Of a stretch of DNA of 24,000 nucleotides, positions 3,443-22,534 are shown one piece after another. How positions within the stretch are numbered: position 1 is the first letter of the stretch; each line of letters starts with the position of its first letter. The notes beneath the pieces were generated by a model, which worked only from the letters and a program-made list of their open reading frames with translations, searched no databases and was not told the origin of the DNA. The DNA lies in NCBI GenBank assembly GCA_030692045.1, contig JAUYCX010000015.1, forward strand, positions 60,065 to 84,064, written 5' to 3'. Position numbers and translations under genes: made by a program. This DNA is from Candidatus Omnitrophota bacterium (GTDB lineage Bacteria; Omnitrophota; Gorgyraeia; JAUYCX01).

Positions 3443-3573
3443 ATCCCCACGTAACTATTAATTGTTTTTTAGTCATTTTCTTACTCTGCCCAAAACATAT
3501 CTAACCATTCTTGTATTACTATAATCCTGCCCAACAAACAACACGGTATATTCTCCATTTCTTAATAAACTAT

Positions 3574-3717
3574 TTACTTGTCCTGGTTACTTCCCTCGGA
3601 TACCAATGTTTTAACCTCATAAATGTTTCTATTCTTTCCCTTGTTATAAAGAGTAAGCCCTATGTTAATTAAATTGGTCAATGCTCCCAAAATAACTGTT
3701 GTTATCATCATTCCCAT
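3574..3717 (-). CDS. Candidate small membrane peptide (47 aa)
   Basis: Below the track size cutoff. A strong SD plus ATG (GGGGAGGTAAGAAATG) precedes MGMMITTVILGALTNLINIGLTLYNKGKNRNIYEVKTLVSEGSNQDK: one hydrophobic helix and a charged tail. Confidence 0.35.
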   Translation of the reverse strand: MGMMITTVILGALTNLINIGLTLYNKGKNRNIYEVKTLVSEGSNQDK

Positions 3718-3822
3718 TTCTTACCTCCCCTTATCTTCTTCAACATCTTAATATCTATCCAATATCTGTAAACTAAAAAACTTTTTTAAATTTTAGCTCT
3801 TTTCAGCTCCAAATCTGGCTCA

Positions 3823-4534
3823 AGCGAGCTGTTAGGTTCGTACGCACATTAAATTCTTTGGCAAATGTTTACGAGGAATTGCGGCGAAGTGAATGCAGAA
3901 ACTGACCATTTCGTTTAACAAGTTGTGGGAATTTCTGCAATGAACGAGCCGCAAACCGAAGTAAACGGCAAAGAATTTAGTGCGGTAGAATCCTAACAGC
4001 GAGCTAACTTAGCGTCTGCGAGCGAAAAAGAATTGAGTTGCTTAATAGAAATAACGGGTCCTGTCTTGGTTTGTTTTTCGCCGCACCGCTTGTCCTGCCC
4101 CAGCGAGGCAGGACTGCGCTCGAAGAAAATTTTCGCTCTGCCTGACTTCAATTATGACGGGCAACCCTGCCCGCTCAAATTTTCTAACGTGCGGCTCAAA
4201 TCTAAACCAAGCCATCCGTTAATCATTCAATTTTAGCGGGCTTGTTCAAAAACCTTTAGCAGATTTTAAAGGGGACTTTTTATCCGCCTTAGCAGAAGAC
4301 CACGGGTTTACTCCTAGATGGATGCGAAGAAAAAGCTGCTTCGGCGAGATGTCGCCAAAAAGCAAGCCGGAAACTTGTCAGCGGATAACCCCGACGAGTA
4401 TGCCGAAATTGTCGAAGAGAATTTCGGCATTTCTTACGAGTCGGGGTACATTAAGTTACCACGCCTGCGTGCCGCAACGCCGCACTTCAATGTGCAGGCA
4501 CGGGCTTGCCTGCGGGGCTCCATTGTCCCCTTTT
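3823..4534. ncRNA. GC-enriched, densely self-complementary noncoding block: candidate large structured RNA or nested palindromic-repeat cluster
   Basis: Consecutive helices read directly. (1) A 180-nt irregular hairpin at 3823-4005: GCTGTTAGG/CCTAACAGC, CGCAC.TAAATTCTTTG pairing, GTTTAC/GTAAAC, TGCGGC/GCCGCA, TGCAGAAA/TTTCTGCA. (2) A multi-stem domain at 4065-4211 closed by CTTGGTTT/AAACCAAG and GCCGCAC/GTGCGGC, containing GTCCTGCC/GGCAGGAC and CGGGCA/TGCCCG. (3) A domain at 4280-4388 closed by TTATCCGC/GCGGATAA. (4) A hairpin at 4389-4446: CCCCGAC/GTCGGGG and TGCCGAAATT/AATTTCGGCA. (5) Mutually exclusive GCCTGC/GCAGGC and GCAGGCA/TGCCTGC helices, followed by GGGG..CCCCTTTT. The ORFs called here overlap one another in two frames. 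Confidence 0.5.
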
Positions 4535-4542
4535 GCTGAAAA

Positions 4543-4587
4543 TATATTCGCGTATATTCGCGTTAGATTAGCATGAATTAGCGTTAG
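4543..4587. repeat. Short tandem repeats: TATATTCGCG x2, then ATTAGC-based repeats
   Basis: tatattcgcg tatattcgcg ttag attagca tga attagcg ttag. It abuts and overlaps the purH stop codon. Confidence 0.85.
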
Positions 4588-6140: not shown

Positions 6141-6162
6141 TATTTAACCTCCTTCAATGAGA

Positions 6163-6308
6163 CCACAATTTATGGAACGAAGTGAACATAAATTGTTTGG
6201 TCGAATTGAACCCAGCACTTATTTGTTCAGATTCATATCGCTGTCAAATAAGTGCTGGGTGTAATTCAGCCGAGCGACTTATGTCATTTCATTCCATAAG
6301 TCGCGGCT
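6163..6308. repeat. Three-hairpin palindromic module (copy B) filling the spacer between the YchF-like gene and purH
   Basis: HP1 6163-6200: ACAATTTATG/CATAAATTGT with loop GAACGAAGTGAA. HP2 6199-6271: GAATT..CCCAGCACTTATTTG/CAAATAAGTGCTGGG..AATTC. HP3 6268-6308: AGCCG.CGACTTATG/CATAAGTCG..CGGCT, whose loop reads GAATGAAATGA on the minus strand. Confidence 0.85.
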
Positions 6309-6311
6309 TCA

Positions 6312-7007
6312 TTACACATTAAAACGAAAATTTATAATATCTGCATCTTTGACAATATAATCCTTACTTTCTAAATGCATTGCTCTGGTTTTAGCCTGAT
6401 TAAATCCGCCTAGCTCCTCCACATCCTTAAAATTAAATACCTCTGCTTTAATAAAACCTCTCTGGATATCAGAGTGCACAAAGCCTGCTGCATCAAAAGC
6501 AGTCTGGCCTTTTTTAAGCGGCCAGCTTCTTAATTCATTTTGATTAGAAGTAAAAAAACAAATCATATTGCAAAGTTGATAAATATTTTTAATGGCTGAG
6601 GCGCTGTCATGAAAGTTTTCTTCGGTTAAAAATAAAATCGGCTTTAAGGTTATAAAATTTAAATTCTGGGCAAGCCTTATTTCATTATCGGAGAGGTTAA
6701 GTTCGTTTAAGAGGCTTTCCTTCTCCAATTCTGGCTGGATGCGTTGAAGGAATTCTTTTTCTTGGGCATTACAGCACAGTAACCTATTTTCAATTAATTC
6801 TAAATCCAATAAAATCAAATCTAATTTTTTGGCAGCCAAACTAATTATTCCCTGGCCATCTTTAATTGTCTTTTCATCATTAACTTCCAGCTGCGGGTAG
6901 GTTGTTTTAGGCGGGCGGAGTAATTCCTTTAGCTTATCCAAACGTGCATCAGGAATTATCTTTTTCCCCAGAGGGAAATCTGAAATGCCAAAAACCGAAA
7001 TTTTCAT
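6312..7007 (-). CDS. YchF/OLA1-like protein lacking the P-loop (degenerate G-domain, TGS-like C-terminus retained)
   Basis: 231 aa. The C-terminus GFIKAEVFNFKDV...HLESKDYIVKDADIINFRFNV matches the YchF C-terminal signature. The N-terminus MKISVFGISDFPLGKKI has no GxxxxGK[ST]. The start overlaps the upstream EF-G-like stop (ATGA). Confidence 0.65.
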   Translation of the reverse strand: MKISVFGISDFPLGKKIIPDARLDKLKELLRPPKTTYPQLEVNDEKTIKDGQGIISLAAKKLDLILLDLELIENRLLCCNAQEKEFLQRIQPELEKESLLNELNLSDNEIRLAQNLNFITLKPILFLTEENFHDSASAIKNIYQLCNMICFFTSNQNELRSWPLKKGQTAFDAAGFVHSDIQRGFIKAEVFNFKDVEELGGFNQAKTRAMHLESKDYIVKDADIINFRFNV

Positions 7008-10686: not shown

Positions 10687-11034
10687 CTAAATTTCTGCTT
10701 CCTTAATTAACCTGCGGTAATATTCTCTACACTCATGACAAGTATTCTTATCCTTATCCCACTTGGGATGGTCTTTTTTTATTAAGTTAATTATATATTC
10801 CTCACTTTTAATATGGGTTAAAGCAACCCTTTCGTCGATTTCTCTTTCGCATATCTGACAGCGGTATTTTCCCGGCGTGTCAGACTCTATTGCCGAATCT
10901 GTCTCTGTCCTTGAATCAGCGCATTTATTGCAAATATCTGGATTGCCCTCTGAAGTGGATACTTTAAAAACTGTTTTAGCAACCTTGCCTAAAAATCCAT
11001 CAAGAGGCACATTACATCTTGCACAGCGGCGCAT
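10687..11034 (-). CDS. Hypothetical zinc-ribbon protein (four CxxC pairs)
   Basis: 115 aa containing CARC, CNKC, CQIC and CHEC. Confidence 0.6.
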   Translation of the reverse strand: MRRCARCNVPLDGFLGKVAKTVFKVSTSEGNPDICNKCADSRTETDSAIESDTPGKYRCQICEREIDERVALTHIKSEEYIINLIKKDHPKWDKDKNTCHECREYYRRLIKEAEI

Positions 11035-11056
11035 TTATAACCTCCTTAATAAGCAG

Positions 11057-11243
11057 ATAACTTACGGAGCGAATGAAATGAGCGACGTAAGTTATAGCGT
11101 CTATCATTTACTTATCTATCAGCGTCTGCGAATTAATCCCGAAGCCTATCCCGAAAATATCGAAGAGATTTTCGGGATGTTTAGGCGAGGGACAAATTCA
11201 GCCAACAAACTTACGTTCGACTTACGTCTCCGTAAGTTTGGGC
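11057..11243. repeat. Three-hairpin palindromic module (copy C), homologous to 6163-6308
   Basis: HP1 11057-11095: ATAACTTACG/CGTAAGTTAT with a loop containing GAATGAAATGA. HP2 11130-11199: GAATT..ATCCCGAAAAT/ATTTTCGGGAT..AATTC with loop ATCGAAGAG. HP3 11201-11243: CAAACTTACG/CGTAAGTTTG. HP1 and HP3 are inverted copies of each other (both contain AACTTACGGAG....CGTAAGTT). Confidence 0.85.
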
Positions 11244-11248
11244 TTCAT

Positions 11249-11605
11249 TTAACCTAATTTATCAATCTTGGCAGCTAAAATAAAATCATTTTCAGACAAA
11301 CCGCCAATAGCATGCGTGGTAGCTGTAAGCTTCACCTTGTTATAATTAATCAAAATTGTAGGGTGATGGCCTTCTTGCTCGGCAATCTTTGCCACATTAT
11401 TTACAAAATCAAGGGAAGCTGAGAAATTCTTGAATTTAAATTCTTTTCTTATTTTGTTACCTTCTACCAATTCCCAGCCTGAAATCTGTGTTAAGAATTT
11501 ATTTGCCTCATCTAAAGTTAATGGCGGCATACCGCCTTCGCAGGGCTTACATTTTTTAGAAGAAAGGTCTATTTCGCAGGTTTTACCTATGTTTTTATCT
11601 TCCAT
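11249..11605 (-). CDS. Pterin-4-alpha-carbinolamine dehydratase (PCD/DCoH family)
   Basis: 118 aa. The EGHHPTILINYNKVKLTATTH core is typical of PCD, as is GWELVEGNKIRKEFKFKNF. Confidence 0.85.
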   Translation of the reverse strand: MEDKNIGKTCEIDLSSKKCKPCEGGMPPLTLDEANKFLTQISGWELVEGNKIRKEFKFKNFSASLDFVNNVAKIAEQEGHHPTILINYNKVKLTATTHAIGGLSENDFILAAKIDKLG

Positions 11606-21094: not shown

Positions 21095-21275
21095 GTAGAT
21101 TTAATATAATACTTGTTGAGGTTAGTCAATTTTTGGCTAACTAAAAAGGTAAACCAATCTTCCTTAAAGATAAAGGAAGACCCCGGAGTATTGTCGGGGG
21201 CCGTAAGGATGGGGCACAAAGCTAAAGGGTCCGCCAAATAAATTTGGCGAGACAGCCAGCTGCCAACAGGATAAT
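21095..21275 (+). promoter_or_regulatory. Structured 5' leader, candidate riboswitch or attenuator sensor domain (class unassigned)
   Basis: Hairpins at 21157-21179 (TCTTCCTT/AAGGAAGA) and 21180-21200 (CCCCGG../..CGGGGG), and an irregular 52-nt hairpin at 21213-21264 with apical stem CGCCAAA-TAAA-TTTGGCG. AUGGG at 21209-21213 can pair with CCCAU in the 5' arm of the terminator. Confidence 0.4.
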
Positions 21276-21316
21276 AAAAAACCCATTCTTTAGGCAAATG
21301 AATGGGTTTTTGTTTT
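21276..21316 (+). terminator. Intrinsic terminator immediately upstream of the pilin SD and start codon (expression platform)
   Basis: AAAAACCCATTC-loop-GAATGGGTTTTTGTTTT, followed directly by the AAAGGAG SD and the ATG at 21329. No upstream plus-strand gene exists for it to terminate. Confidence 0.7.
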
Positions 21317-21328
21317 AAAGGAGTGGCG

Positions 21329-22534
21329 ATGAAAAAAATTGCTATAAGAAACGAGGGTTTCACTTTGGTTGAAGTATTAGTTTCCACAGTGATTGCCGTA
21401 TTTATGGCAATTATTCTGTTGGGTTTGTTTCTGGTGGGCAGAAATTCCTGGTCAACAGGCGCAGTTTATATTGACCTGCAACAACAAGCGCGCCGGGCAA
21501 TGGATGCAATGGTTTGGGAATTAGCGCAAACTGGTATTGACTTAACTCAAGCAGTTGAGGTTAAGATACTTCCTTGCTCAAACAGCGATAACGAACCTCC
21601 AGAAGCCATCTGTTCAGGAGAAATGGTTTCCTTCAGTATACCAATAAGCACACCAGAGGACATTGGTTATACCATCTATAAACCAGATGGCACAATTAAG
21701 TGGGGTGATAAGGAAACTAGCCCTCTCAACCCTCTGGAACAAGCGGGAACAGAGGGCCGCACAATTAATTTTTATGTAGCAAAGCCTCCCTCAACTGATC
21801 CCTCAAAAACACTGGTTAGGCGAAGTTGGATTCAAACAGGCGTTGGCTGTTTCTTAGCCGGAACCACTATTTTGATGGCTGATTCAACACTTAGGCCTAT
21901 TGAACAGCTTAAAACAGGCGATGAGATTATGGCTTTTGATGAAGACTCAAAAGCCCTTGTTAAAGATAGGGTTAGCAAATTTTTTCAACACACGGCAGAT
22001 GAATATTTAATTATTAACCATAAAATTAAGCTTACAGCCAATCACCCTGTTTATTCTAATGGTAAGTGGTTAGAAATAGGCGTATTAAAAAAAGGAGATG
22101 CTTTGTTCAACTCTGAAGGCAAGCCAGAAATAATCAAAGATATAAAGAAGATTCGGGAAAAAGTTAAGGTCTACAATATCGAGGTTAATCCCTATCATAA
22201 TTATTTTGCCGGTGGGATATTGGCGCATAATAAACCTTTGCCTCCAGAAGAAATCCCCCGACCGCCTTGCGAGTGGTGCAAATTATGGGATGATTTTCTG
22301 TTTGTTAAAGAGGCCTTTGCAGTTGGAGGTGGAGGGGGAGCTACTTATGATATTACAAGGAAATATTTAGCATCTGATATTACTGAGGTAAATTTTGCAG
22401 GCTTTACAAGCTCAGGCGGTTCTACTGACACAAACCCAGATTTAATTGAAATTACTGTTACGGCAGAAAAAACAGCCCTTGCGGGAGGCAATATAACTTT
22501 ATCTCTAAAATCCCGAGTGACCTTGAAGAATTAA
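21329..22534 (+). CDS. Type IV pilin-like minor (pseudo)pilin carrying an internal Hint/intein-like domain
   Basis: Prepilin class-III signal MKKIAIRNEG/FTLVEVLVSTVIAVFMAIILLGL. PilW/GspJ-like segments (QQQARRAMDAMVWELAQTG at the N-end, ITLSLKSRVTLKN at the C-end). I chose the ATG at 21329 (SD AAAGGAG) rather than the track start at 21302, which lies inside the terminator hairpin. Confidence 0.85.
   Translation: MKKIAIRNEGFTLVEVLVSTVIAVFMAIILLGLFLVGRNSWSTGAVYIDLQQQARRAMDAMVWELAQTGIDLTQAVEVKILPCSNSDNEPPEAICSGEMVSFSIPISTPEDIGYTIYKPDGTIKWGDKETSPLNPLEQAGTEGRTINFYVAKPPSTDPSKTLVRRSWIQTGVGCFLAGTTILMADSTLRPIEQLKTGDEIMAFDEDSKALVKDRVSKFFQHTADEYLIINHKIKLTANHPVYSNGKWLEIGVLKKGDALFNSEGKPEIIKDIKKIREKVKVYNIEVNPYHNYFAGGILAHNKPLPPEEIPRPPCEWCKLWDDFLFVKEAFAVGGGGGATYDITRKYLASDITEVNFAGFTSSGGSTDTNPDLIEITVTAEKTALAGGNITLSLKSRVTLKN
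21848..22231 (+). other. Mini Hint domain (128 aa; bacterial intein-like) embedded in the pilin
   Basis: CFLAGTTILMADS (Cys1, block A), KLTANHPV (TxxH, block B), VYNIEVNPYHNYFAGGILAHN (blocks F/G, terminal HN). The next residue is Lys. There is no endonuclease insert. Confidence 0.8.

Follow-up and report, generated by a model that had tools for sequence, protein, structure and literature searches.

Results

Three hairpins fill the spacer between two minus-strand genes

In the window, the whole 24,000-nucleotide stretch of Candidatus Omnitrophota DNA that was analyzed, the intergenic spacer at positions 11035-11248 (locus C) is filled entirely by a three-hairpin stretch. Both flanking genes are on the minus strand: the upstream gene encodes Pterin_4a (pterin-4a-carbinolamine dehydratase), and the downstream gene is an ORF of 115 aa (Table 1). 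Read in the mRNA sense, the element that occupies the spacer begins with AATGAAGCC..., overlapping the Pterin_4a stop codon, and ends with ...CTGCTTATT, immediately before the Shine-Dalgarno sequence of the downstream gene. The element's last plus-strand base, the T at 11249, opens the TTA that corresponds in reverse complement to the Pterin_4a TAA stop. On the plus strand, the stop-side end module reads AATTCAGCC-AACAAACTTACG..CGTAAGTTT-GGGCTTCATT, and the start-side module carries an insert of ~32 nt (11096-11127) between its hairpin and GCGAATT. The middle palindrome is bracketed by GAATT (11130-11134) and AATTC (11195-11199); a copy 80% identical to it lies at 4386-4430 (family D5), and further copies are found on contigs C9, C14, C117, and C51. 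A false plus-strand ORF of 126 aa (window 10877-11257) crosses locus C, and naive ORF calling prefers it to the genuine minus-strand gene of 115 aa.

Table 1. Coordinates of locus C, its parts, its neighbors, and related palindromes in the window. C84 is a contig of the host genome.
Feature	Window position	Strand	Basis or remarks
Pterin_4a gene, upstream of locus C	11249-11605	-	
ORF of 115 aa, downstream of locus C	10687-11034	-	
Locus C, complete ORF-less composite element, 202 nt	11048..11249	-	Pair of end-module matches; equals C84:71112-71313
Stop-side end module (R1) of locus C	11195..11249	-	nhmmer and covariance-model match, C84:71259-71313
Middle palindrome of locus C (second type)	11138..11191	.	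Outer stem CCCGAAGCCTA/TAGGCGAGGG, inner hairpin CCCGAAAATATCGAAGAGATTTTCGGG
Start-side end module of locus C (R1, CTGCT[C/T]ATT subfamily)	11048..11134	-	Hairpin TAACTTACG..CGTAAGTTA at 11058-11094
Shine-Dalgarno core GGAGG of the 115-aa ORF, outside the repeat	11041..11045	-	2 nt past the element end
Locus B, second complete element, 158 nt	6156..6313	-	Between YchF-C-like gene and purH
Solo middle-type palindrome without end modules	4389..4446	.	CCCCGACGAG..CGAGTCGGGG, inner hairpin GCCGAAATTGTCGAAGAGAATTTCGGC; downstream of purH

Locus B fills its spacer (6141-6311) just as locus C does. Its end modules lie at 6156-6207 and 6263-6313, and its middle palindrome (6211-6258) is a shortened form, CCCAGCACTTATTTG..CAAATAAGTGCTGGG, with arms that belong to the CCCAGCACT(A/T)ATTT family, whose long copies bear the nuclease gene described below. 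Against shuffled sequences, the folding z-scores are -5.2 (RNA) and -5.7 (DNA) for locus C and -8.5 (RNA) for locus B; 0 of 200 shuffles folded as well as the native loci. The solo palindrome downstream of purH has only the middle-type palindrome in common with loci B and C (family D5), and its homologs are on contigs C92, C76, C9, C54, and C91.

The strings quoted from the window in an earlier sequence-only reading were all recovered in place: the left flanks of the second hairpin, gcGAATTaatCCC at 11128-11140 and tcGAATTgaaCCC at 6201-6213; its right flanks, GGGacaAATTCAGCC at 11189-11203 and GGGtgtAATTCAGCC at 6257-6271; and an 11-nt loop, GAATGAAATGA, at 11071-11081 on the plus strand and as its reverse complement at 6284-6294. 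That reading had taken the first and third hairpins for inverted copies of one module and the interior of the second for a replaceable part, and both points were borne out, the latter as an exchangeable middle module.

Two other parts of the window deserve mention. Downstream of purH, a 1.1-kb region (3443-4583) that contains the solo palindrome has no convincing gene-strand ORF and many GC hairpins, for example at 4440-4530; a search of the window downstream of purH, from 3400, gave no Rfam match at E <= 5. On the plus strand, a c-di-GMP-I riboswitch at 21138-21267 (RF01051; 43.5 bits against a gathering score of 35) precedes a gene on the same strand at 21302-22534.

A modular repeat family in the host genome

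The genome to which the window belongs (G000) has 2.19 Mb in 119 contigs and a GC content of 37%, and is 95.7% complete and 7.5% contaminated. BLAST of the three window loci against it gave mosaic matches on many contigs, and an iterated nhmmer profile located 158-163 end modules on more than 15 contigs. Pairing of these modules yielded 52 complete elements and 54 solo ends. The lengths of the 52 elements have their mode at 213-240 nt and a maximum of 426 nt, and the family takes up ~15 kb, or 0.7%, of the genome.

The end module follows the pattern AATTC-N4-(2-3 nt bulge)-ACAACTTAYG-loop-CRTAAGTTGT-N4'-TCATT. In the mRNA sense, an element opens with a 5' module, in which (TC)AAATGAAGCC is followed by a bulged 14-bp hairpin (core ACTTAYGG...CCRTAAGT) and then by GGCTGAATT; next come an exchangeable middle palindrome, bracketed by GAATT...AATTC, and an inverted 3' module ending in ...CTCATT. 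The two ends of one element are inverted at the level of the family, yet they are no closer to each other than the ends of different elements. Minimal elements also exist, such as TAAGTGAG-[hairpin]-CTCATT, and small GTCCGCCA-N8-9-TGGCGGAC hairpins (59 copies) are often nested in the loops of end modules.

In 61 copies of the end module, 96.9% of the cells at the 14 paired positions are Watson-Crick, and 11 of the 14 pairs have changed on both sides, which none of 500 shuffles reproduced; G-U accounts for about 4 of 850 cells. Covariation of this kind, with hardly any G-U pairs, suggests that pairing counts in either strand or in the DNA itself.

No Rfam family reached its gathering score, and relaxing the threshold to E <= 5 brought up only miRNA and snoRNA hits at chance level. 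Three other identities were considered and ruled out. Integron attC sites do not fit copies that are dispersed over more than 15 contigs between housekeeping genes (purH, EF-G-like, Pterin_4a) and not arrayed at an integrase; terminators do not fit dispersed copies without a U-tract that are never in a convergent context; and the reading frames opened by the 5' terminal ATG/GTG, at 3-42 codons, are not conserved, as a mini-peptide would require. As a separate observation, tandem small hairpins of the TCCGCCA-N8-TGGCGGA type occur outside elements, often at contig ends (C17:71-112, C107:2959-3000, C9:270027, C9:275150, C58:23477, and C91:4190).

Elements lie between stop and start codons in one polarity

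By our crude ORF calls, 44 of the 52 complete elements have a co-directional gene context, 7 a divergent one and none a convergent one, and reading of the flanks showed the 7 "divergent" elements to be reversed co-directional cases. In the mRNA sense, the 5' end of an element reads ...(a/g)ggtcA-AATGAAGCC or ...tTA-AGTGAGGAC, and the upstream ORF often stops at the TGA within AATGA (distance -5) or at TAA. After the 3' end, ...CTCATT, comes either AAAGGAGG-N5-9-ATG or, with nothing in between, a start codon; the layout in which CTCATT abuts AAAGGAGG..ATG is found at most copies, locus C included. Counted over the host genome, CTCATT/GTCATT termini adjoin 62 starts and 7 stops, and TTCATT/CTCACT termini adjoin 4 starts and 23 stops (stops to starts 14:4 for TTCATT alone). 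The polarity bias is also present in 120 loci from other MAGs (42/112 vs 3/30, p = 0.004). The elements therefore have one polarity, with one end overlapping the upstream stop and the other abutting the downstream Shine-Dalgarno sequence or start. Shine-Dalgarno-like words precede the 5' terminus of 23/52 elements, compared with 48/446 control spacers, which fits a duplication of the downstream ribosome-binding site.

The end module is found across Omnitrophota

A covariance model of the end module (R1) matched 46 of 61 relatives, corresponding to 45 of 60 genera, nearly all from different families, and, in a phylum-wide sample, 96 of 151 genomes. The top scores elsewhere (74 bits) equal those in the host genome, copies per genome range from 0 to at least 95 among related genomes, and the modules in other genomes number in the thousands. 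An exact-pattern scan of named genomes returned more than 120 stretches, almost all labeled Candidatus Omnitrophota or Omnitrophica and a few Planctomycetia or other, the taxon being that of the record label. These counts uphold the sequence-only reading in its view of a modular, interspersed family like BOX or BIME. Our search of the literature on Omnitrophota repeats and on bacterial GIY-YIG MITEs found none. The family of nuclease-associated hairpin repeats is real and phylum-wide and has apparently not been published.

A GIY-YIG nuclease gene fills the loop of some middle palindromes

The commonest middle module is CCCAGCACTAATTTT[T/A]...AAAATTAGTGCTGGG. ORF-less middles with these arms are present in ~30 copies of 99-105 nt and in either orientation; their arms are conserved, whereas their interiors drift. 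Four copies in the host genome are ORF-bearing and 267 nt long, and share 16-nt arms with the ORF-less middles. Their ORF, of 79 codons, fills the loop of the middle palindrome exactly, such that the ATG comes just after the 5' arm and the TAA is formed by the first bases of the 3' arm. Two of the four copies are intact and two contain an in-frame stop.

The 79-aa protein, encoded for example at C9:11310-11546, has PF01541 as its sole domain (38.6 bits, cut-off 22.6). Across 31 homologs, the catalytic positions Y7, Y18/Y19-G20, R27/R28, and E56 are invariant or nearly so. An AlphaFold model of the protein has a pLDDT of 92, and its nearest solved folds by Foldseek are UPF0213 (BH0048) and Slx1; among solved relatives the UPF0213 proteins come nearest, with weak E-values (0.04). 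The dN/dS ratio between nuclease copies is 0.03-0.29. Lengths across genomes are 77-99 aa, mostly 77-85, and a wider collection of homologs comprises 71 clusters of 51-104 aa (most 76-81), in which every source that names an organism is Omnitrophica/Omnitrophota.

The gene is linked to the end modules well beyond the host genome. The ORF lies between R1(-) and R1(+) in the four host copies and in seven other genomes (G042, G058, G007, G053, G012, G031, and G008), and G040 has R1 on one side of it only. In genomes of other families, this linkage persists at 37-50% protein identity, and in G014 and G027 an R1 module stands beside a broken or partial nuclease copy. A nuclease homolog is detectable in 19 of the 61 relatives, compared with 46 of 61 for R1, and the high-copy R1 genomes G019 and G056 have none at E <= 1e-5.

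Nucleases with the same middle arms are 65-80% identical and those with different arms at most 56%, in a small sample of related genomes in which R1 is constant. Because the nuclease clade varies with the middle arms and R1 does not, the build appears layered, a shared and conserved end-module doublet hosting diverging nuclease-palindrome units at its center. R1 may also be an older, separate layer with another means of movement, which the nuclease unit invaded secondarily. One copy in the host genome (C98:20377-20613) is nearer to a copy from another family (G042 C14:19380-19616; dS 0.41) than to the other host copies (dS > 2.6), a pattern that horizontal transfer or contamination of the bin might explain.

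Filled and empty sites and direct repeats at the flanks

Two pairs of ORF-less middles, each from separate loci, match at 100% identity, and the end modules around them differ. In a metagenome search with purH, which returned no relative closer than 68% to the host genome, the filled and empty sites come from other lineages. Upstream of purH, most of 80 related contigs are without R1, L028 and L077 carry full elements, and in L061 a 3' module stands alone. The site in L053, a contig sharing 91% purH identity with L061, holds a 270-nt palindrome of unrelated sequence. On the downstream side of purH, no insert is present in L061 (CATTAATGAATGG), a solo R1 fits between TAA and ATG in L063 and L043, and L053 and L066 carry other palindromes. 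In L072 and L073, flanks that are 99% identical differ by a palindrome of ~137 nt. L073 shows a palindrome inserted into the arm of another hairpin. Insertion polymorphism is thus present at these sites. A different family of long palindromes, TATAATTTTGCGNAGGGATTTGTGAGCGTGC...GCACGCGAACAATATCCCGCAGCAAAATTATA, was also noted in the YchF-purH spacer of L053 (2700-3000) and L066 (2760-3000). At locus C, an exact-protein look-up found one other assembly with both flanking proteins (Logan, SRR13727536), and its contigs L240 and L241 each end inside the repeat, so that this locus offers no strain comparison.

The left and right flanks of the same element share longer words than the flanks of different elements (4.56 vs 3.87, permutation p < 0.0005, host genome), and direct repeats of at least 10 nt are found at 13/158 termini, compared with 27/2000 random positions. 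The target-site duplications that the sequence-only reading had proposed to look for are present to this extent, as an excess of direct repeats at the flanks; their length is variable (10-20 nt), and most copies have none. One example, in the region C51:22050-22436, is a tRNA-Glu(CTC) (C51:22161-22238) bracketed by two repeat insertions; at the borders of these insertions, 20 and 17 nt of the 5' or 3' end of the tRNA are duplicated, and the tRNA itself is intact. Flank repeats of 15 nt border the elements C14:6889-7128 and C91:32637-32889. The identical middles, the filled and empty sites, and these flank repeats all speak for mobility.

Discussion

Taken as a whole, these data are probably best explained by a mobile family of nested palindromes that is driven by the GIY-YIG nuclease and lodges between the genes of operons; locus C would then be a gene-less, non-autonomous copy of this hairpin-rich Omnitrophota repeat. 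To our knowledge, GIY-YIG enzymes hydrolyze DNA and are not known as transposases, and it is therefore from the linkage of gene and repeats that we infer a part for this protein in their movement. By analogy with the Ssn nucleases discussed below, the protein would bind its cognate hairpin once the DNA is single-stranded and nick nearby, and host replication or repair would then copy the element to a new site, leaving a target duplication of 10-20 nt. The insertions that survive lie between a stop codon and the Shine-Dalgarno sequence or start of the next gene, in one polarity. In this position the element would provide or keep the stop codon of the gene before it, as TGA within AATGA or as TAA within TAAGTGAGG, the target duplication would keep the downstream ribosome-binding site intact, and the hairpins would fold the insert away, so that the operon still works.

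The Ssn proteins are single-domain GIY-YIG nucleases, of which SsnA has 94 aa and the catalytic residues Y6, Y17, and E64 (Chenal et al., Nat Commun 2025, PMC11893778). Their target is a directional hairpin repeat (NTS/SRM), which they recognize solely in single-stranded form, cutting the DNA a few nt upstream, and their genes are flanked by their own hairpin repeats, in a layout that the authors liken to an insertion sequence (PMC11893778). The Omnitrophota family shares with them a single-domain GIY-YIG protein of less than 100 aa, a gene bracketed on both sides by hairpin repeats, and repeats that are directional and present in tens to hundreds of extragenic copies. It differs in several respects. 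The protein of the host-genome type is shorter (77-79 aa vs 94 for SsnA); its gene also lies inside a separate palindrome whose arms vary with the protein; R1 is a longer, AT-rich, bulged hairpin without the 5' GTC tag of SRM; and placement is strictly from stop to Shine-Dalgarno sequence, in one polarity. The Omnitrophota family also has ORF-less derivatives, filled as well as empty sites, and duplications of 10-20 nt, none of which that paper reports. The SRM motif HGTCWYN(0-2)YYVSBRHN(0-5)WNVSBRGN(0-2)RNCYNB has 7 matches in the host genome, compared with 0-8 in shuffled genomes, and 1 of the 7 is in an element. With this difference in motif, we read the Omnitrophota family, by analogy, as one that may work like the Ssn/SRM system. 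Two tandem hairpins of the canonical Ssn-related type, TGTCATTCCCGCGAAAGCGGGAATCC and TGTCATTGCGAGTCCCGACAAAGTCGGGAC, were observed at a contig end of the host genome (C114:30-110).

A bolder version, which we put forward tentatively and would not be surprised to see fail, is that the composite moves as a transposable element in the full sense, with no gene other than that for a single-domain GIY-YIG nuclease that works on single-stranded DNA. Such an element would insert at ribosome-binding sites or starts with fixed polarity and 15-20-nt duplications, and different nuclease-palindrome pairs would home into the center of a shared, phylum-wide hairpin doublet as a form of layered parasitism.

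The same hairpins might have been kept by the host as a cis-acting RNA or DNA signal between cistrons, serving mRNA protection, processing, or stop/Shine-Dalgarno translation coupling, conserved through a host factor that binds them and mobile only secondarily. Strict polarity relative to transcription, exact placement from stop to Shine-Dalgarno sequence, conservation of the module sequence across families of the phylum, and very stable folds that juxtapose stop codon and Shine-Dalgarno sequence would all suit such a signal. We nevertheless consider it unlikely, as the same junction is empty or holds unrelated palindromes in close relatives, related genomes have anywhere between 0 and more than 95 copies, each element contains the module in both orientations with almost no G-U pairs, nuclease ORFs and pseudogenes are nested inside, and Rfam has no match.

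Movement by another enzyme would leave the GIY-YIG unit as an unrelated passenger, the repeats being of the REP/BIME or REPIN type and spread by a RAYT, a Y1 HUH transposase. The family does resemble the REP, BIME, and REPIN repeats of Enterobacteria and Pseudomonas, which are extragenic palindrome mosaics often found after stop codons in operons and form long hairpins as doublets: it, too, is a BIME-like mosaic of extragenic imperfect palindromes in alternating orientation, and the scarcity of G-U pairs in the hairpin fits recognition at the DNA level. Genes with the Y1 domain (PF01797) are present as well, 7 in the host genome and in 51 of 61 relatives, and their presence is associated with that of R1 (Fisher p = 0.011). 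Across these related genomes, which are not independent samples, R1 counts correlate with those of both Y1 (rho 0.44) and the nuclease (rho 0.49), so the correlations do not discriminate. When the flanks of the seven Y1 genes were folded and scanned, none (0/7) had R1 in its immediate flanks, and the only R1 modules within 5 kb of any of them lie ~3.6 kb from the IS200-type gene on C71. The association with RAYT/TnpA genes that the sequence-only reading had proposed to look for was not found, and the gene linked to the repeats is instead the tiny GIY-YIG nuclease. One Y1 gene, of 240 aa (C30:4015-4737), has a direct copy of a different hairpin, GGACTTGCGCGGTCCGCAGATTA, on either side and forms with it a candidate RAYT/REP pair unrelated to R1. 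The R1 consensus also lacks the GTAG head of classical REPs and differs from them in sequence, and the nested GIY-YIG gene sets the family further apart. Finally, duplications of 10-20 nt are seen in the host genome, and RAYT and IS200/IS605 elements are not known to duplicate their target when they move. On this balance we think it quite improbable that a RAYT spreads these repeats.

A local duplication or chance resemblance confined to the window loci, which the proximity of loci B and C (5 kb apart) and nothing else would suggest, and which the sequence-only reading had held to be simpler should no further copies exist, has next to no chance of being right, since the profile scan (nhmmer) of the genome and its relatives found many further copies, with ~160 modules on more than 15 contigs and thousands in other genomes.

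The nuclease-driven mobile family that we favor can also be set beside other short repeats and mobile genes. Like MITEs, its short copies share their middle arms (CCCAGCACTAATTTT) with longer, gene-bearing copies, the gene of the long form being in this case a GIY-YIG nuclease and not a recognized transposase. Compared by description only, it is like Correia/NEMIS of Neisseria and BOX of Streptococcus pneumoniae in being short, non-autonomous, provided with inverted ends, and co-transcribed with its neighbors. BOX elements have a modular A-B-C build. Solo R1 copies are flanked by TA..TA, as in Correia elements, but the duplications seen here are far longer than 2 bp. Free-standing GIY-YIG homing endonuclease genes, such as seg/mob of phage T4 and the mobile ORF at the 3' end of mitochondrial atp6 in Allomyces, are likewise small intergenic insertions that sometimes re-create the end of the upstream gene; the Omnitrophota family differs from them in having no DNA-binding domain, multi-copy non-allelic sites, hairpin modules, and abundant gene-less copies. 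Mycobacterial interspersed repetitive units (MIRUs) also lie between cistrons in gene orientation, touching stop and start codons, but MIRUs are tandem direct repeats with small ORFs and not palindromes.

For practical work, these repeats break assemblies, create false ORFs, and may add codons to gene ends, and they should therefore be masked by annotators of Omnitrophota MAGs. A 79-aa nuclease with a defined hairpin target could also serve as a single-stranded-DNA tool.

Ssn nucleases and their hairpin repeats were first described in 2025, with the mobility of the hairpin-gene-hairpin unit left as a hypothesis and no mention of Omnitrophota, operon junctions, gene-less derivatives, or duplications (PMC11893778). 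The Omnitrophota family makes the mobility of such a unit directly testable. With gene-bearing and gene-less copies, filled and empty sites, long duplications, and a strict landing rule in operons, Omnitrophota appear to be a natural experiment in this respect. If the composite is indeed a transposable element of the kind outlined above, it would represent a class of prokaryotic transposons outside the DDE, HUH, serine, and tyrosine types.
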